Under the pieces are notes generated by a model. That model was not told the origin of the DNA and made no database searches. It saw only the letters and a list, made by a program, of their open reading frames with translations. A stretch of 64,000 bases of DNA from an uncultured Candidatus Rokubacteria bacterium. Lineage in GTDB: Bacteria > Methylomirabilota > Methylomirabilia > Rokubacteriales > CSP1-6. Position numbers and translations under genes: made by a program. The stretch lies in NCBI GenBank assembly GCA_963771355.1, contig CAVYTA010000007.1, positions 352,001 to 416,000 of the forward strand. Direction: 5' to 3'. The number at the start of each line of letters is the position of its first letter. The first letter of the stretch is position 1. Shown here one piece after another: positions 31,630 to 39,642 of the stretch.

Positions 31630-32172
31630 TTACTCGACGGGGTTTCGCTTGGCGGTGGGGAGACCGATCCGGATGAAGGCGTGCTTCTCGGCGGCATGGC
31701 AGGCGGTGCAGGCGGCGCGCATCGCCTCGATGCGCTGCTTGAAGAGCGCGGGGTCCTTCTTCTTGATGGCCTCCACGACCTGGGGCAGCGGGCCCTTGAG
31801 GAAGAGGTTCTCGGCATTGGCCTTCCGGCTGGGACTGCGCTCGAGCCCGAGCCGGAGCGCGCTCTCGAGCGTCATGGCCATGTGCGCCGCGTAGTCCCAG
31901 TTGCCTTCCACGCCGCCGAAGTACATCTCGCCGTAGCGATACGAGACCTCGGCCATCGCGGTCTCGAAGCCGCGGAGCTGGCGCTGGATGGCCGGGATGC
32001 GCGCATCGGCCTTCAGCGCGACGAGCCACCCGGGCCCCTCGCTCGGGCCGTGGCCGTGCACGTGCTGCGCGAGCGCGACGCTCCACCCGGCGCCGAAGCC
32101 CGCCGCGGCGAGCACCGCGCCGGCCAGGACGCCGCCGAGCCCCCATCCTCTCGAGATCCGAAATCCGCGCAT
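31630..32172 (-). CDS. Exported monoheme c-type cytochrome (class II/cytochrome c'-like)
   Basis: Signal peptide; helical body; single CTACH close to the C-terminus. Confidence 0.75.
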
Positions 32173-32275: not shown

Positions 32276-32905
32276 TCAGGCCAGCGCGGCAGGCAGGTCG
32301 AGCAGCGAGGCGATCACCGCGGTGGCGCTCACACCGCGGCGGGCCAGCTCGTCGTGGTCGGGGCGATAGGCGATGAAGGGAACCCCGCCGGCCTGCGCGG
32401 CGGCCCCGTCCACCCAGGAATCGCCGACCACCACCACGTGCTCCGCCTCGGGCCAGCGCGCGCGGATGACGCGGAGCCCGTCCGGATCGGGCTTGAGCGC
32501 GCGCACGTCGTCGCGCGTCACCACGAGGTCGAGGTGCGGGGCCAGCCCGAAGCGGGTGAGGACATAGTCCGCCACCACGCGGTCATTGTTGGTCCACACC
32601 GCGGTGGCGAAGCCGAGGTCCTTCATGGCGCGGACGGCTTCCATGGCGTGGGGGACCAGCTCGGCCAGCTCCATGGCGCGCCGCTCGTGGGCCACCGGGA
32701 TCGCGAGCACCTCGGTCTCGATGTGGGGCGCCTCGCGCCGCACCACCGCCAGCAGCTCGGCACCCGACCATCGCAGCTCGCGCGTGGGCAGCGACACGCC
32801 GCGCGCGCGGATCAGGTGCTCCATCTCGCGCCCCACTGCTCTGAGATCCAGCGGCGAGTTGACGAGGGTGTGGTCGAGGTCGAAGACGCAGACCGGCAGG
32901 CTCAC
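32276..32905 (-). CDS. HAD family hydrolase
   Basis: FDLDHTL, WTNN, KPDPDG, VGDSWVD. Confidence 0.9.
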   Translation of the reverse strand: MSLPVCVFDLDHTLVNSPLDLRAVGREMEHLIRARGVSLPTRELRWSGAELLAVVRREAPHIETEVLAIPVAHERRAMELAELVPHAMEAVRAMKDLGFATAVWTNNDRVVADYVLTRFGLAPHLDLVVTRDDVRALKPDPDGLRVIRARWPEAEHVVVVGDSWVDGAAAQAGGVPFIAYRPDHDELARRGVSATAVIASLLDLPAALA

Positions 32906-32989
32906 CCGCCCAGGTTATCAGATGGTCCGCGGCGACCCTTCGGGAACCGCCCTTGAGCGGCGCGCGTTCCGTGTGGGACAATGCCCGCG

Positions 32990-33523
32990 ATGAACCGTGG
33001 TCGACTGCTTGCCCTGAGCTTTATCGGCGCGCTCCTCGGCGCCGGATTCTTCGCCGGCCCCGCGGCGGCGCACCTCCCCCGGTTCGCCCCGGTCGTGGAC
33101 GTCGTGCCCGAGCCCGCGGCGGCGCCCGATCGCACCCCCGCCCTGCTGGACCTGGCCTGGACGGCCGCGCCCACCCCGGCCGGCGTCCCCTGGTACCTGG
33201 TGGTCGCGCTGTCCGGCCTCGCCGCGGTCGGCGCCCGCCGGCCCCGCCGGAACCTTGCGCTGGCTCTGGTGCTCCTCCTCGCGATCTTCGCCTTCGAGAA
33301 TGGCCTCCATTCCGTCCATCACCTGAACGATCAGGATCGCGGCGAGAGCTGCGCGGTGGCTTCGGCCTCCCAGCACGTCGCCGGGACCGAGGTGGAGGGC
33401 GGGTTCACCGCCGACGCGCCCGCGCCGGCCGAGCCCATCAGGGTCGTCTCCGTCCGCGTCATCCGCTCCGCCCGCTCGCTCGGCCCGCACGAGGGTCGCG
33501 CTCCCCCCATCGCTCCCGCCTAG
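32990..33523 (+). CDS. Membrane protein with His/Cys cluster and C-terminal RAPP motif (DUF2946/CruR-like leader candidate)
   Basis: Signal-like N-terminus, two further hydrophobic helices, HSVHH...C...H, ends GRAPPIAPA*. Confidence 0.7.
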   Translation: MNRGRLLALSFIGALLGAGFFAGPAAAHLPRFAPVVDVVPEPAAAPDRTPALLDLAWTAAPTPAGVPWYLVVALSGLAAVGARRPRRNLALALVLLLAIFAFENGLHSVHHLNDQDRGESCAVASASQHVAGTEVEGGFTADAPAPAEPIRVVSVRVIRSARSLGPHEGRAPPIAPA

Positions 33524-33612
33524 CCGTTTCCGGATCCGCGCCGCTCGCGCTTCGGTAGTTCCGGCGGCGCCCTGTGTTTCCGTTCCGGCACCAGGAGGGA
33601 ATCGTCCGTTTC

Positions 33613-34371
33613 ATGGCCGCTCGTATTCCATTCACGCGACTGGGCCCGTTCGCGGCGTCGTGCGCGCTCCATGTGGTCCTCGTGGGGCTCGCCGCCGCGG
33701 TGGTACCCGGCTGGGTGACGCCGCTGCCGCCCGTGCTCGAGGCCCAGCTCATCGAGCCCGAGCCGGTGCCGGTCACGCCCGCGCCGCCGGCGGCGCGTCC
33801 GGCACGCCCGGCACAGCCCGCGCCGACCACGCCGCCACGGCTTGTCGAGGCTCCGAAGCCGCGGGTCGAGGAGCCGCCGGCCATGGAGCCGCCAAGCCTC
33901 CCGGCGCCCGCACCGTCGGTGGCGCCCCTGTCACCGCCGTCCGCCCCACGCGAGACCCTGCCATTCGCGGTGGCCGCCAGCGAGCCGGCGGCCGCGCCCG
34001 CCGAGCTTCCGGCGGCGGTGGGACGCCCCGCGACGCCCGCGGCCGCGCCCGTTCCGCCGCCCGTGGTGGCGAAGGCGACGCCCGACGAGGGCATCACGCG
34101 TATGGCGACGCCCACCGGCGGCTATCAGGTTCGGCCGTCCTATCCGTCCACGGCGCGCCGGCTCGGCGTCGAGGGCACCACCTTGCTGCGAGTGTATGTC
34201 GCCGCCGACGGGCGGGTCACTGACGTGCAGGTGGACCAGTCCGCGGGCCACCCCGACCTCGATCGCGCGGCCGCCGAGGCGGTGCGCCGCTGGAAATTCG
34301 AGCCCGGGCGTCGCGGCAGCGAACCCGTGGGCATGTGGGTGCGCCTGCCCGTCCAGTTCGTCCTCAAGTGA
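33613..34371 (+). CDS. tonB: Energy transducer TonB
   Basis: TM anchor SCALHVV, Pro-rich linker, PSYPSTARRLGVEG...LDRAAAEAVRRWKFEP. Confidence 0.92.
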   Translation: MAARIPFTRLGPFAASCALHVVLVGLAAAVVPGWVTPLPPVLEAQLIEPEPVPVTPAPPAARPARPAQPAPTTPPRLVEAPKPRVEEPPAMEPPSLPAPAPSVAPLSPPSAPRETLPFAVAASEPAAAPAELPAAVGRPATPAAAPVPPPVVAKATPDEGITRMATPTGGYQVRPSYPSTARRLGVEGTTLLRVYVAADGRVTDVQVDQSAGHPDLDRAAAEAVRRWKFEPGRRGSEPVGMWVRLPVQFVLK

Positions 34372-34397
34372 GCCTCCCGAGTGAAAGAGACTCCCCG

Positions 34398-36521
34398 ATG
34401 ATCCTGGTCGCCCTCCTCGTGGCCCTCATCCTGGCGGCGCCGGCCGGGGCCCAGCCGGCACCGCCCACCACGCCGCCCACGCTGCCGCCGGTGCGCGTGG
34501 AGGACACGCGCGTGCCCGATGAGCGCACCGCCACCCCGGAGCAGGCTCGGGAGGAGATCGAGCGTACGCCGGGCGGGGTCGGCATCGTCACGCAGGAGCA
34601 GATCGAGGAGACCCGGGCGGCGAATCTCAAGGACGCGCTGGAGTGGGTGCCGGGCGTGATGGTCCGGCCGCGCTTCGGCGCCGCCGACGAGAGCCAGCTC
34701 TCCATCCGGGGCTCGGGCCTCCGGAACAACTTCCACCTCCGCGGCGTCAATGTCCTCATCGACGGCTTTCCCTATGGTAATGCCGACGGCTTCAGCGACT
34801 TCGAGTCACTCGAGCTCCTGACCACCAAGCGCATCGAGGTCTTCAAGGGCGCCAACGCGCTGCGCTTCGGCGGCAATACCCTGGGCGGCGCCATCAACCT
34901 GGTGACCAAGACCGGCGCCGACGCGGGCCTCGTCGAGTCGCGGCTGGAAGGCGGCTCCTTCGGGTTCTTCAAGGGCTACCTGGGCACCGGGCAGGTCTAC
35001 GGGCCGTTCGACCTCTACGTCGGCCTCAGCGACACCGAGCTGGAAGGCTATCGCGACCACTCGGAGCAGGTGCGGCGCCGCATCTACTCCACCTTCGGCT
35101 ACCGCTTCTCCGGCGGCACCACCGTGCGCTTCGACTTCGGGTTCGTGCGGAGCGAGGAGAACCTGCCCGGGGCGCTCACCCGTGAGGAGTTCGACGACGA
35201 CCCGAAGCGGGCCGATCCCGCCAACGTGGCCACGCGGGCGGCGCGCGACTACAACTACACGCGCGGCGCCTTCACGGTGCGGACCCCGCTCACGGAGGAT
35301 CAGACGCTGGAATGGGCCACCCAGCTCAACTACCAGGACATGGACCACCCGCTGTCCTTCGCGATCATCGACAACACCACCTATGCCTGGAGCACCGAGC
35401 TCCGCTGGATTCTCGCCGCGCCGCTCTTCAGCCACGGCAACCGGCTCACGGTGGGCCTCCAGTACGCGGGCACCCAGCAGATCGACGTGAACTTCGCCAA
35501 CGTCCTGGGCAACCGGGGCGCGAAGACCAAGAATCAGATCAACGAGGCCACCAATCTCGGCCTCTACGTCGAGGAGCAGCACGACCTCACGCCCGGCTTC
35601 ACCGTGGTGCTCGGCGGACGCGGCCAGTACGCGATCCGCGCCGTGCGCGACCGCTTCACGATGCGGGACGGGGCCGGCGACCGCGACGGCAACGACTCCG
35701 ACGCGGTGGACTTCTTCTCGGTGTCGCCCAAGGTGGGGTTCGTCTGGCGCCCGGCGAAGACCGTGCAGGTGTACGGCAACGCCAGTCACGCCTATGAGCC
35801 GCCGCTGCTCCTGGAGCTGACCGCGCCCGGCCAGGTTCAGGGCAATCTCAGCCAGCTTTCGGCCCAGAAGTCCTGGCAGTTCGAGCTGGGCACCCGCGGC
35901 ACCGCGGGTAAGCGGGTGGGCTGGGACATCTCCGTTTACGACATCGAGCTCTGGGACGAGATCCAGAACGTCAATGTCCAGCCCTTCCCCTTCGCGCCCT
36001 TCACCATCCCACGGTTCCGCAATATCGACCGCTCCCGCCACACCGGGGTGGAGGCGGGGGCCGATCTGCTGCTCGTCGAGGACATCGCCCGTCGCATCGG
36101 GCTGGGCGCTACCGGCGACTCGCTCACCGCGCGGGCGTCCTACACCTGGTCGCGCTTCGTCTTCGTCGACGACCCGAACTTCGGGAACAACGACCTGCCG
36201 GGCGCCCCGCGCCACTTCGTGATCGCGGAGCTGCGCTACCAGCACGCCTCCGGCTTCTGGTTCGCGCCGGGCGTGGAGGTGGTGCCCCACGGCTACTTCG
36301 TCAACAGCGAGAACAATGCCCGCACCGAGGCCTACACCCTCTTCAACGTCCGGATGGGCTACGACTACAAGCCCTGGAACCTCGGCGTCTTCCTCGAGGG
36401 CCGCAACCTGACCAACGCGTCCTATATCTCATCGGTCCAGGTCGATGCCTCGAACCGCCGCTTCTTCGAGCCGGGTGACGGCCGCGCGATCTATGGCGGC
36501 GTCCAGTGGAGGTGGAAGTGA
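34398..36521 (+). CDS. TonB-dependent outer-membrane receptor
   Basis: Signal peptide, plug motifs VPGV, LSIRGSG, RIEVFKG, LGGAINLVT; barrel ending NLTN...PGDGRAIYGGVQWRWK. Confidence 0.95.
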   Translation: MILVALLVALILAAPAGAQPAPPTTPPTLPPVRVEDTRVPDERTATPEQAREEIERTPGGVGIVTQEQIEETRAANLKDALEWVPGVMVRPRFGAADESQLSIRGSGLRNNFHLRGVNVLIDGFPYGNADGFSDFESLELLTTKRIEVFKGANALRFGGNTLGGAINLVTKTGADAGLVESRLEGGSFGFFKGYLGTGQVYGPFDLYVGLSDTELEGYRDHSEQVRRRIYSTFGYRFSGGTTVRFDFGFVRSEENLPGALTREEFDDDPKRADPANVATRAARDYNYTRGAFTVRTPLTEDQTLEWATQLNYQDMDHPLSFAIIDNTTYAWSTELRWILAAPLFSHGNRLTVGLQYAGTQQIDVNFANVLGNRGAKTKNQINEATNLGLYVEEQHDLTPGFTVVLGGRGQYAIRAVRDRFTMRDGAGDRDGNDSDAVDFFSVSPKVGFVWRPAKTVQVYGNASHAYEPPLLLELTAPGQVQGNLSQLSAQKSWQFELGTRGTAGKRVGWDISVYDIELWDEIQNVNVQPFPFAPFTIPRFRNIDRSRHTGVEAGADLLLVEDIARRIGLGATGDSLTARASYTWSRFVFVDDPNFGNNDLPGAPRHFVIAELRYQHASGFWFAPGVEVVPHGYFVNSENNARTEAYTLFNVRMGYDYKPWNLGVFLEGRNLTNASYISSVQVDASNRRFFEPGDGRAIYGGVQWRWK

Positions 36522-37741
36522 TGGGGATCGCACGCGCGCTGCCCGCCGTCCTGCTGCTCCTGCCCGCCCTGGCGGACGCCGCCGAGATCCACTTCGGCCC
36601 CCGCAGCGAGCTGACGCATCCGGGCAAGGGGCACGAGGTGCACGCCTCGGCGCCCGCGCTGGCGGTGACGCGGGACGGGACGCCGCTCGTGACCTGGGCG
36701 ACCGAGGAGGGGCATGACAAGCACGTCTACGTCGCCCGGCCGGGTGAGGCGGCGGCGAAGCCGGTGCGGGTGAATCCAGCCGGGATGGGCGTGGAGTCGC
36801 TGCACCACTCCCCGCTGCTGGCGGTCGGCCCCGGCGGCGAGATCTATCTCTCCTGGTCCTCCGATCGGCCCAAGCCCGACGGCGTGCTCTTCGCCTCGGA
36901 CCTGCGCCTCTCCCGCTCGCTCGACGGCGGGCGAACGTGGGAGGGCCATCTCCGCGTCAACGAGGACCGCCCCATCTCGCACTCGTTCGAGGGTATGGCG
37001 GTGACCGCGGACGGCACCGTGGTCATGGCCTGGATCGACAGCCGCGAGGGCTCCGAGCAGCCCGCCACCTGGGTGGCACGGGTGCTGGATCGGGGCACCC
37101 GCCCGGAGCCCTCGGCCAAGCTCGACGGCGCCACCTGTGTCTGCTGTCGCGTGGACGTCCGCGGCGGTCCCGGGGACATGGTGGCGGTGCTGTGGCGCAA
37201 GGTCTTCTCCGGCGACATCCGTGACATGGTGCTCGGGCTCTCGCGAGACGGCGGCAAGTCCTTCGCGGCGCCCGCGCGCGTGGCCGACGACGGCTGGAAG
37301 ATCACCGCCTGCCCGCATCGCGGGGGCCAGGTGGCGCTCGACGGCCAGGGCAAGGTCTACGCGGCCTGGTACACCGAGGGCAAGCAGGGCGTGCCCACCA
37401 TGCTCCTCGCCACGTCGACGGACGGGCGCCGCTTCGGGGCCCCCATCCGGATCAATCCATCCACCGTGACCATCCCCGATCAGGTCCGGCTCGCCGTGAA
37501 CGCGGCCGGCCAGGCGGTGGTGGTGTGGGAGGATGCCACCGCCGTGCGCCGCCGCATCCTGCTCCGCGCCAGTTTCGACGGCGGTCGGACGCTGGGTCCG
37601 GTGCAGACGCTCTCGAAAGCGGTGAAGGCCTACTCGCCCGACGTGGTGGTGACGCCCGGGGGCGGCTTCGTCGTGGCCTGGCACGAGGAGCAATTCCCGT
37701 CGCTCAAGACCGTGGTCCAGCCCCTGCGGGTGTCCCCTTGA
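36521..37741 (+). CDS. Exported BNR/Asp-box (sialidase-like) beta-propeller protein with CxCC and CPH motifs
   Basis: Asp-boxes SLDGGRTW, SRDGGKSF, STDGRRF, SFDGGRTL; CVCCR and ACPHRG. Confidence 0.85.
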   Translation: MGIARALPAVLLLLPALADAAEIHFGPRSELTHPGKGHEVHASAPALAVTRDGTPLVTWATEEGHDKHVYVARPGEAAAKPVRVNPAGMGVESLHHSPLLAVGPGGEIYLSWSSDRPKPDGVLFASDLRLSRSLDGGRTWEGHLRVNEDRPISHSFEGMAVTADGTVVMAWIDSREGSEQPATWVARVLDRGTRPEPSAKLDGATCVCCRVDVRGGPGDMVAVLWRKVFSGDIRDMVLGLSRDGGKSFAAPARVADDGWKITACPHRGGQVALDGQGKVYAAWYTEGKQGVPTMLLATSTDGRRFGAPIRINPSTVTIPDQVRLAVNAAGQAVVVWEDATAVRRRILLRASFDGGRTLGPVQTLSKAVKAYSPDVVVTPGGGFVVAWHEEQFPSLKTVVQPLRVSP

Positions 37742-37742
37742 T

Positions 37743-38750
37743 CTAGGTCGCCGTCTGCTCGAGCCGGATCAGGAGATCCCGCAGCAGCTCGAGGCCGCCG
37801 TGGTCGAGGGTGCGGTCCGACACGATGAGCTCGACGTCGGGCGGCAGGGTCTTGCGGATCCGGGCGGCCCCTTGCTCGGAGCAGAGGACGACGCGGGTCT
37901 GCTCGAGCATGCGGTCCAGGGACCAGGGATCGTCGGCGGACGCGAGCACGGGCGTGATGTCCGAGAGGCCGGCGGACTGGAGCGAGCGGAGGAGGTTCTG
38001 GCTGCCGGTGGCGGTCGTGCAGACCAGCCCCACCGTGGCCCCCGGGGGCAGCTCGGTGAGCCGTAGCAGGGTCGAGATATTGGCCTTGGACAGGAGCGCG
38101 ACCACGGGCGGGCCCTCGGCGGGGACGGCCGCCTTGACCTCGTGGATGTGAAAGAAGGTCGTGACCACCACGCGATAGCCGCTCAGGAAGCCGGGCTCCT
38201 GGGCCATGCGCGCGGGGAGCTCCTCGACCAGCACGCGGTCCACCGAAACGGGCAGGGCGGTCTCGAGCTCCTCGCGGTAGCGCGTGAGCTCCTCCCAGTT
38301 GCACTCCACGAGCAGGGCGCGGACCCGGGCGGGTCGGGGACGCATGCCGGCATACGGAGCGCGCGCGGCCACCGTCACGAGCAGCTCCTCGTGGGTGAAG
38401 CCGAGCCGCCGCGCGCGCTCGAGCGTCTCCTCCACGAGCACTTCCAGGCTTCGCGCCGCGCGTCCCTCGCGCGTGGGCGGGCGCTCCACCACGAAAGTGC
38501 CGCGCCCCTGCTGGCTCTCGAGATAGCCGTCCCTGAGGAGATCCGCCAGCGCGCGCGCGGCGGTGTTGCGGTTGATCCGCAGGAAGCCCGCGAGCTGCCG
38601 CACCGTGGGCAGCTGCACGCCCGGCTTGAGATGCCCGGCCTCGATCAGATGCCGGATCTGCGTCGTGAGCTGTACGTGCACCGGCACGCTGCTCTGCCGG
38701 TTCACCTGCAGCCCCGACGGCGGGACTATCGTCGATGACTCGCGGGCCAC
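37743..38750 (-). CDS. GntR family regulator with long C-terminal effector domain
   Basis: PVHVQL, LPTVRQLA, INRNTAARA, QGRGTFV; C-terminal VECN and VVTTFFH motifs. Confidence 0.9.
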   Translation of the reverse strand: MARESSTIVPPSGLQVNRQSSVPVHVQLTTQIRHLIEAGHLKPGVQLPTVRQLAGFLRINRNTAARALADLLRDGYLESQQGRGTFVVERPPTREGRAARSLEVLVEETLERARRLGFTHEELLVTVAARAPYAGMRPRPARVRALLVECNWEELTRYREELETALPVSVDRVLVEELPARMAQEPGFLSGYRVVVTTFFHIHEVKAAVPAEGPPVVALLSKANISTLLRLTELPPGATVGLVCTTATGSQNLLRSLQSAGLSDITPVLASADDPWSLDRMLEQTRVVLCSEQGAARIRKTLPPDVELIVSDRTLDHGGLELLRDLLIRLEQTAT

Positions 38751-39034: not shown

Positions 39035-39051
39035 GACACTTTTAAGCCCGT

Positions 39052-39080
39052 GGAACTTTTCGGGGAGGGTATGGTCTAAC
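39052..39080 (+). promoter_or_regulatory. ECF (RpoE-like) promoter motif, copy 1
   Basis: GGAACTTT-N14-GTCTAAC immediately upstream of the ECF sigma gene. Confidence 0.7.
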
Positions 39081-39081
39081 C

Positions 39082-39642
39082 GTGCGTGGTGAGAGTCCTT
39101 CTGAGCCCAGGGAGCTGCTGGACCGGCTACGGGCGGGCCAGACCCGAGCCTTCGAGGAGCTCGTGACAACCTATCAGCATCGAGTGTTCGGGGTCGCGGT
39201 GCGTATGCTCGGCAGCCCGGCCGAGGCCGAGGAAGTGGCCCAGGAAACCTTTCTCCGGGCGCATGGGGCGCTGGCCGAGTTTCGCGGGGACGCCAAGCTC
39301 TCGACCTGGCTCTATGCGATCACCTCGCGCCTCTGCCTCAATCGTCTCGCTTCCGGCGAGGGTCGGATGTCGCGCGCCCGCGCCCAGGGGCTGGACCGAC
39401 TTCCCGCCGCTGAGGGAGGCGAGCCGGGGGCCGATCTCGAGCGGAGCGAGCGCGAGGCAGCGCTTCACCGCGCCATCGCCGAGCTGCCCGAGGAGCGGCG
39501 CATCGTGGTGGTCCTGCGCGACCTCGAGGGTCTCGCCTACGACGAGATCGCCGCGGCCCTGTCGCTGGAGCTGGGCACGGTGCGCTCCAGGCTGCACCGG
39601 GCGCGGCTCGACCTCAAGGAGAAGCTGGAGCGCTTCCTGTGA
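39082..39642 (+). CDS. ECF RNA polymerase sigma factor
   Basis: AFEELV, AEEVAQETF, STWLYAI, LEGLAYDEIA, GTVRSRLHRAR. Confidence 0.95.
   Translation: MRGESPSEPRELLDRLRAGQTRAFEELVTTYQHRVFGVAVRMLGSPAEAEEVAQETFLRAHGALAEFRGDAKLSTWLYAITSRLCLNRLASGEGRMSRARAQGLDRLPAAEGGEPGADLERSEREAALHRAIAELPEERRIVVVLRDLEGLAYDEIAAALSLELGTVRSRLHRARLDLKEKLERFL

Follow-up and report, generated by a model that had tools for sequence, protein, structure and literature searches.

What is the function of the 177-residue open reading frame that precedes a tonB-receptor-BNR operon in an uncultured Candidatus Rokubacteria bacterium? The locus lies in the window analysed here, 64,000 nucleotides (nt) at positions 352,001 to 416,000 of contig CAVYTA010000007.1 (GenBank assembly GCA_963771355.1), and its features are listed in window coordinates in Table 1. 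A sequence-only reading had proposed that the frame, with its HSVHH-x9-C-x7-H cluster and near-terminal R-A-P-P, is a metal-sensing arrest leader resembling CruR and CutF; its coordinates for the frame, both motifs, the spacer, a GC stem and the AGGAGG were all correct when re-read from the sequence. Most likely the frame encodes a real, conserved arrest-type leader with a link to copper. We put at roughly 0.6 the probability that this arrest leader maintains translation of the tonB-receptor-BNR import operon under copper scarcity and shuts it off on binding copper. Taken separately, it is very likely a ribosome-arrest leader, copper is probably its signal to judge by the neighbouring genes, the operon is fairly likely to be on while the ribosome stalls in low copper, and masking of the Shine-Dalgarno (SD) sequence is slightly favoured as the main route. 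The sequence itself holds a conserved RAPP end, a fixed Cys-to-Arg distance, a His/Cys set, a promoter layout and a copper neighbourhood.

A conserved leader family and its published counterparts

A single-sequence search found 74 homologues of the leader, and a profile of its core gave 653 matches among 7,989 candidates scored and also 850 clusters at 50% identity. Four frameshifted or truncated homologues (P0016, P0065, P0070 and P0075) were left out of one profile of the family. Members occur in 122 of 251 Methylomirabilota genomes, related loci are mostly labelled Rokubacteria or Methylomirabilota, and the host genome holds no second copy. Pfam and NCBIfam contain no family for the leader. 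Matches to DUF4131 were rejected as reflecting the hydrophobic segment only, and in the ESM Atlas the closest clusters consist of Methylomirabilota proteins without a name; of the named clusters DUF2946 comes nearest, at 0.81, and serves as a lead only.

RAPP near a stop codon is common by chance in a GC-rich genome (in the host, with 71% G+C, 409 of 65,574 stop-to-stop frames carry a terminal R[AG]PP within 8 residues of their end), and the case therefore rests on conservation. Among 134 leaders collected by their His motif and not by RAPP, 129 end in RAPP or RGPP; two of the five exceptions look frameshifted, two run off their contig and one has GRPP. The window leader follows RAPP with four codons (IAPA) and a TAG at 33521-33523. 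The distance from the conserved Cys to the Arg of the motif is 49 residues in the window leader and in 108 of the 129, and 48-50 in all 129 as well as in 319 of 319 scored proteins. It remains 49 in three relatives (L004, L006 and L012) despite a six-residue insertion N-terminal of the Cys, and the linker from Cys121 to RAPP is itself unconserved, most of its columns being under 50% conserved. This fixed distance is the strongest sign that the leader is the same kind of device as CruR, and together with the conserved end it supports the proposed arrest type.

The putative ligands are equally constant: all 245 full-length members have H107, H110, H111 and C121, and 181 keep H129. At position +3 after the Cys, a second Cys occurs in none of 319 proteins and Ala in 274 (CAVA in the window leader), as expected from the earlier suggestion that His ligands stand in for CxxC. 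Members of about 95-120 residues with a single helix head exbB-exbD-receptor, F9-copC-copD or porin genes; since such short members exist, the N-terminal extension of the window leader is an add-on of part of the family. Across homologues RAPP and the His/Cys set are thus conserved, and synteny with the tonB/receptor operon is recurrent.

CruR (Bp2923, DUF2946/PF11162) of Bordetella pertussis heads cruR-crtA(bfrG)-bp2921; its CxxC lies at 90-93 and its RAPP at 139-142, so that C90 and R139 are 49 residues apart, a spacing needed for regulation (PMC9426467), and its arrest was shown in vitro (PMC12992588). CruR and the window leader are both the first gene of a TonB-dependent import operon and share a terminal RAPP, a long spacer and, by prediction for the window leader, an export signal; CruR also shares with the leader family a first Cys 49 residues before the Arg, and copper-homeostasis genes neighbour leaders across the family. 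Unlike CruR (145 residues), the window leader has 177 residues with a predicted signal peptide, a predicted membrane hairpin and His at +1 of the predicted cut, and it has CxxA and an upstream HSVHH in place of CxxC. Its operon also differs in placing tonB first, in a YncD/PqqU-like and not CrtA-like receptor, in the predicted SD masking and in a leader score below the Pfam cut-off (23.7 bits, the PF11162 gathering threshold).

Because both the CxxC and the score test fail, we do not file the leader under DUF2946 and read it as a probable distant relative or analogue working like CruR. A 122-residue relative (L134) passes PF11162 at 26.2 bits and also matches the leader family profile; it is the only case over the cut-off among 251 genomes, canonical DUF2946 being nearly absent from the phylum. 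Alignment of the leader core profile with a DUF2946-like protein near the cut-off (L135) by hhalign gave nothing (probability 1%).

CutF of Rhodobacter capsulatus resembles the leader: its nascent chain is exported, and some 45-49 residues separate its metal site from a Pro-rich end (PMC9973294; bioRxiv 10.1101/2025.02.05.636593). Its stall opens an SD-shielding stem, and the CutF-like set includes His-containing variants; CutF differs in its CxxxC, in being turned on by copper and in its target, a detoxifying oxidase (PMC9973294). The CutF-like survey dropped proteins over 150 residues, which would exclude the 177-residue leader; length is the one rule of that survey on which it fails, the other three holding for it, and the short members of about 95-120 residues fit the length as well (PMC9973294). 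Other RAPP arrest peptides (ApdA, ApdP, ApcA and SecM) precede protein-localisation genes and lack a metal motif (PMC10951233). Two Streptomyces lividans leaders, SLIV_18480 and SLIV_16130, are closer in layout, being multi-transmembrane or signal-bearing RAPP leaders with conserved His/Cys ahead of metal genes, and their arrest was shown in vitro and in vivo (PMC12992588); they come from another phylum, have no outer-membrane receptor and are set beside the leader by layout.

CruR, CutF, His-only CutF-like clusters, multi-transmembrane His/Cys RAPP leaders and RAPP upstream open reading frames before TonB-related genes are thus already published. The novelty first seen in the His ligands, the multi-transmembrane layout and the TonB-related target is accordingly reduced: the features are there, and they have counterparts (PMC9973294; PMC12992588). 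For this family itself, literature searches that covered supplements in part turned up no description. The supplements of PMC9426467 and PMC9973294, excluding the cluster-logo figures of the latter, hold no Methylomirabilota, Rokubacteria or NC10 entry, and the searched supplement parts of PMC12992588, whose list of upstream open reading frames gives genomes by accession, hold no Rokubacteria or Methylomirabilota entry. That list does contain WP_108647837.1, a 137-residue HSVHH...Cys...RAPP protein before a TonB-dependent receptor, with a Cys-to-Arg distance of 48 by our count; because this protein has it, the layout is not confined to Methylomirabilota.

Copper genes around the leader family and the receptor of the window operon

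Neighbouring genes were compared at 51 related loci, some of which share a genome. The gene that comes first after the leader is tonB in 32 of them, in line with the proposal of tonB as first target, the unannotated gene F9 in 11 (copC comes next in all 11), copC in 3, a receptor, SCO or cytochrome gene in one each, and none or another gene in 2. Genes for copC, copD, SCO, PCuAC or cusF lie downstream on the same strand in 28 of the 51 loci and anywhere in 33, and the order leader-tonB-receptor-BNR-copC-copC-cytochrome recurs. Two genomes of the same genus carry a second leader that diverges into F9-copC-copD-HAD. The window keeps the HAD and cytochrome genes on its divergent side without copper genes; in relatives these two genes sit within the same copC/copD clusters, and the host has copC and copD elsewhere in its genome, together with a heme-copper oxidase, Rho and EF-P. 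No Ni, Co or Zn transporter family was found among 46 selected neighbour proteins. The sequence-only reading had suggested that the leader may sense a different metal, with Ni, Co, Zn and Cu as candidates; the predominance of copper genes speaks against a metal other than copper.

Several proteins of these loci drew attention in their own right. The cytochrome (31630-32172, minus strand) has a His-rich N-terminus, closes copC-copC operons in many relatives and matches no family above cut-off. F9 (L009:10490-11473, minus strand; L046:6319-7302, plus strand) is an exported protein of 290-330 residues with His at +1 and no Pfam or NCBIfam match, and is a candidate copper-uptake component. At L019:5437-7980 and L024:5764-7978 two family leaders occupy one operon, in the order leader-tonB-leader-small gene-receptor-BNR, so that tonB and the receptor may be gated separately.

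Among solved structures, YncD/PqqU comes closest to the window receptor, which it matches over its whole length at E 6e-39. The match to CrtA of B. pertussis (PDB 9RVQ) has E 4.8e-8 and is limited to residues 7-245, and OprC does not appear in the top 25 NCBIfam families; alignment scores, not a published network, set the receptor apart from CrtA. The PqqU signature is Y/F/W99, R304 and R365. Tyr99 of Escherichia coli PqqU corresponds to Phe in the window receptor, followed by a conserved His, and Arg304 and Arg365 have no Arg counterpart (PMC12124388): position 365 is Asp, and 304, in a poorly aligned stretch, is Asp in the printed alignment or Gln if the register is shifted by eye. Import of pyrroloquinoline quinone (PQQ) by the receptor was therefore rejected, two of the three published signature residues being missing. 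The window receptor is one of two in the host, and His113 and His317 are kept in 16 of 17 orthologues. The BNR protein has an invariant His, C-x-C-C, Met and C-x-H across 22 orthologues; no solved structural relative was found for it.

Promoter, messenger RNA and locus layout

A -10-like xAxxxT stands exactly 7 nt before the leader ATG in 82 of 106 relatives and at other spacings in at most 8. The window hexamer is GACAAT (32977-32982), with TTGAGC at 32953-32958, and from its position the leader transcript is predicted to be leaderless. A GAAC-N18-GTT element overlaps this sigma70-like promoter in 38 of the 106 relatives; no other spacing between 14 and 22 accounts for more than 1. It matches the SigH/SigE consensus of actinobacteria (PMC10012870) and may be a stress promoter or, being palindromic in the window, an operator; the word pair is not enriched genome-wide at the N18 spacing. 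The sigma70-like promoter scores below the threshold of a generic scan, which found no promoter at all and gave no signal before tonB, where no further dedicated search was made.

The leader and tonB are separated by 89 nt (33524-33612), close to the median of 91 nt to the next start in 80 unique loci of the 129, the set on which RNA tests were run after leaving out loci without a located downstream start. The GTG at 33574 was rejected as the tonB start, as it lies upstream of the SD and relatives begin at the equivalent of 33613. The long AGGAGG-ATG spacing that had been remarked on is indeed unusual, spacings of 13-18 nt occurring at 19 of 391 AGGAGG-ATG starts genome-wide, and it is kept in the family (48 of 80 loci, with a slightly wider set of SD motifs); one guess is that it means low tonB output. 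The 7-bp GC stem is present in the sequence as noted, GCGCCGC (33538-33544) pairing with GCGGCGC (33564-33570) at a predicted probability of 0.92-0.96. It excludes the SD and is the inner hairpin of a longer structure, and the regulatory helix would instead join the last leader codons to the SD (predicted probability 0.77-0.86).

The strand opposite the SD would lie inside the stretch covered by a ribosome stalled at Pro172/Pro173. We modelled such a ribosome as a mask of the length of a ribosome footprint. It was placed with the two Pro of RAPP in the P and A sites, the stall site reported for such leaders (PMC12992588; PMC10951233). Most predicted SD partners lie between -2 and +22 relative to the P-site codon. 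The mask cuts the energy needed to open the SD by at least 2 kcal/mol at 45 of 80 loci, compared with 4 of 80 when placed 15 codons earlier. A leader end is a better partner for its own SD than for the SDs of other loci in 24 of 33 representatives that share under 70% identity (23 of 10,000 permutations), and a control with the linker was null. An earlier, weaker duplex test that ended short of the stop codon found the cognate pair better in 48 of 80 loci and the native sequence better than synonymous recodings in 62 of 80, the window itself not among them. Codon usage is also biased: the first Pro of the motif is the rare CCT in 32 of 52 leaders vs 7 of 140 A-P-P sites in other genes, and the last leader codon is GCC in 64 of 80 loci.

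Region 33460-33640 is not more stable than its shuffles (z = +1.18), Rfam gave no match at E up to 0.1, and a generic promoter/terminator scan found no intrinsic terminator. A moderate excess of C over G (32 vs 16) marks 33467-33526. One metatranscriptome contig spans 33221-33809 (four low-depth contig runs from one study), which shows neither a single transcript nor attenuation.

Table 1. Features of the leader locus in window coordinates
Feature	Position	Strand	Details
Leader open reading frame	32990-33523	+	177 aa
Predicted Sec signal peptide	32990-33073	+	aa 1-27; A-x-A at -3/-1; His28 at +1 of mature chain
Predicted membrane hairpin	33188-33295	+	TM1 aa 67-82, RRPRR cytoplasmic loop, TM2 aa 88-102 (TM, transmembrane segment)
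Candidate metal site	33296-33376	+	E103-x3-H107-S-V-H110-H111-x9-C121-x-x-A-x4-H129
Arrest motif R170-A-P-P173	33497-33508	+	49 residues C-terminal of Cys121
Anti-Shine-Dalgarno	33514-33521	+	last two codons and start of stop; predicted partner 33593-33600
Inner GC hairpin	33538-33570	+	contains the 7-bp stem of the sequence-only reading
tonB Shine-Dalgarno AGGAGGGA	33593-33600	+	AGGAGG-to-ATG 14 nt
tonB	33613-34371	+	252 aa; Pfam TonB_C, E 1e-22
TonB-dependent receptor	34398-36521	+	707 aa; YncD/PqqU-like; Pfam Plug and TonB-dependent barrel
BNR-repeat exported protein	36521-37741	+	406 aa; Pfam BNR_2, 31 bits vs cut-off 31.4
HAD hydrolase	32276-32905	-	divergent from leader
Small c-type cytochrome (CxxCH)	31630-32172	-	divergent side
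ECF (extracytoplasmic function; SigH/SigE-type) promoter-like site	32943-32968	+	GGAAC-N18-GTT; 5-bp inverted repeat to 32970
Sigma70-like promoter	32953-32982	+	TTGAGC-N18-(TG)-GACAAT; -10 placed 7 nt 5' of leader ATG

Beyond the operon, a GntR-family regulator (37743-38750, minus strand) converges on the BNR gene with a gap of 1 nt and is kept in only two related loci. A GGAACTT-N16-GTCTAA element (39050-39080, plus strand), which we take to be a sigmaE-type autoregulatory promoter by its match to the consensus, lies 5' of an ECF sigma gene (39082-39642), and the gene after that begins with an HxxxCxxC anti-sigma motif. The host genome holds two further RAPP-ending leaders. One, at G000:C5:420110-420397 (plus strand), is an unrelated 95-residue membrane leader with an acidic W-I-P-G-M-Y-D-x-x-D-x-D-D and no His or Cys; it precedes a small exported protein, and the SD that follows looks complementary to its final codons. 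The other, at G000:C6:1464298-1464564 (plus strand), has a His-x-His-Glu ... Asn-Glu-Gln-His motif and precedes a 473-residue protein similar to the porins of L142 and L147 and genes that by eye seem to encode ZnuA-type binding proteins; it is a candidate zinc or other metal switch.

Proposed switch, its alternatives and its meaning

Hydropathy and a weak fold model place helices at residues 3-20, 68-80 and 85-112 of the leader, followed by a mostly disordered tail. An export signal and an N-in, C-out segment ahead of the metal motif are predicted from hydropathy, the A-x-A and the RRPRR loop, in keeping with the extra membrane segment proposed before. Of 245 full-length members, 238 have His at +1 of the predicted cut, 236 Ala at -1 and 199 Ala at -3; given this A-x-A-His where the first helix ends, the signal peptide would be cut off so as to make His28 the N-terminus. 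By the positive-inside rule, TM1, the RRPRR loop and TM2 would place His28 and the HSVHH/Cys set in the periplasm.

In the mechanism that we propose, the mRNA would begin at or just 5' of the leader AUG, and the nascent chain would be inserted as a signal peptide and membrane hairpin, exposing His28, HSVHH and Cys121 to the periplasm. The ribosome would stall at the position demonstrated for CruR, ApdA and ApdP, Pro172 occupying the P site and Pro173 the A site; the 49 residues would put Cys121 just past the tunnel and the translocon. Covering 33514-33521, the stalled ribosome would loosen the helix over the tonB SD and may also keep Rho off the mRNA. Copper on the His/Cys site would fold or pull the chain, releasing the arrest, and the helix would form and turn the operon off.

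Several results weigh against this reading. The window leader lacks CxxC and a match to DUF2946: with E values up to 1 allowed, PF11162 hit neither the entire protein nor its core, nor was there a hit at its genome place, and weak matches are seen in 8 of 75 homologues (best E 0.025). The window operon has no dedicated copper gene, nor is a copper-handling gene found on that strand in 14 of 26 tonB-first relatives with at least 4.5 kb downstream; some short distant members precede BBP2-type porins and not copper genes, and His-only CutF-like clusters precede Ni/Co-linked hupE/ureJ genes (PMC9973294). The AlphaFold model of the leader is poor (pLDDT 57, pTM 0.26), too weak to place ligands, and TM1 is by hydropathy only moderately hydrophobic and marginal. 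At the host locus the mask eases SD opening by only about 2.4 kcal/mol, and the freed SD pairs again with nearby sequence. RNAalifold failed to return the SD helix for 14 close relatives, and column covariation for it was not above shuffles, which fits a helix shifting register between lineages and equally a weak constraint. Some pairing is automatic between C-rich Pro codons and G-rich SDs, and the loci tested are kin, several from the same genome.

The same leader and signal might act mainly on transcription, the stall keeping Rho off the C-rich leader end and the SD helix being secondary. This mechanism was shown for CruR (PMC9426467), and Rho in the host, the C-over-G excess without an intrinsic terminator and the small SD effect in the host genome agree with it. 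We nevertheless consider it unlikely, as leader-SD complementarity is locus-specific across the family, the spacer (median 91 nt) is shorter than the 162 nt of CruR and the Pro codons account for most of the excess of C over G. That an arresting leader senses Zn, Ni, Co or several metals is quite improbable: His-rich sites with one Cys and no CxxC suit these ions, as do the hupE/ureJ contexts of His-only clusters (PMC9973294), the porins after some short members and a receptor neither CrtA-like nor matched by OprC among its best 25 families, but the 33 of 51 loci with copper genes and the lack of Ni/Co/Zn transporter families among the 46 neighbours point the other way.

A switch of the opposite sign, with copper prolonging the stall and turning the operon on as in CutF while copC/copD handle excess copper, would suit the predicted anatomy of the leader, which resembles the Sec signal, periplasmic site and SD-shielding stem of CutF (PMC9973294; bioRxiv 2025.02.05.636593), as well as the Pfam labelling of CopC/CopD as resistance proteins. 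The target is, however, an energised outer-membrane importer, one relative carries SCO/PCuAC delivery chaperones, no copper oxidase or P-type ATPase family occurs among the 46 neighbours scanned, and a full RAPP arrests by itself in CruR and seven Streptomyces leaders (PMC12992588), all of which make the opposite sign very unlikely. Least credible is a stable small membrane metal chaperone or secretion monitor in which RAPP couples synthesis without metal sensing, or a receptor that imports PQQ. The membrane hairpin and His28 would suggest a mature product, and the receptor's closest solved relative would suggest PQQ; a variable linker of fixed length, the first position after a conserved promoter, the absence of sec or yidC as first downstream gene at the 51 loci and the missing PqqU signature residues argue against both.

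Returning to the copper-released arrest leader, a more elaborate form of it is speculative and rather doubtful. Here the leader would be a two-part trans-membrane Cu(II) sensor: signal peptidase would cut the stalled chain and free His28, whose closure on HSVHH/Cys121 across the hairpin would pull the chain out of arrest. An N-terminal histidine is the kind of copper ligand used by CopC. If true, this would be a metal switch that requires cleavage of its own nascent chain and is driven by two promoters, a leaderless one of the housekeeping type and an ECF one for stress. The receptor family under its control may then serve an abundant uncultured soil phylum as a copper importer not described before.

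The concept of a metal-sensing arrest leader is already published and is unchanged by this family. On how copper binding alters arrest in CruR/CutF-type leaders, the family bears as a natural experiment: the 49-residue ruler is kept, and CxxC is swapped for HSVHH and one Cys. As members come with and without signal peptide, His at +1 and extra helix, ligand set, topology and pulling force become separable. For Rokubacteria, the family marks the YncD-like receptor, the His/Cys-rich BNR protein and F9 as candidate parts of copper uptake.

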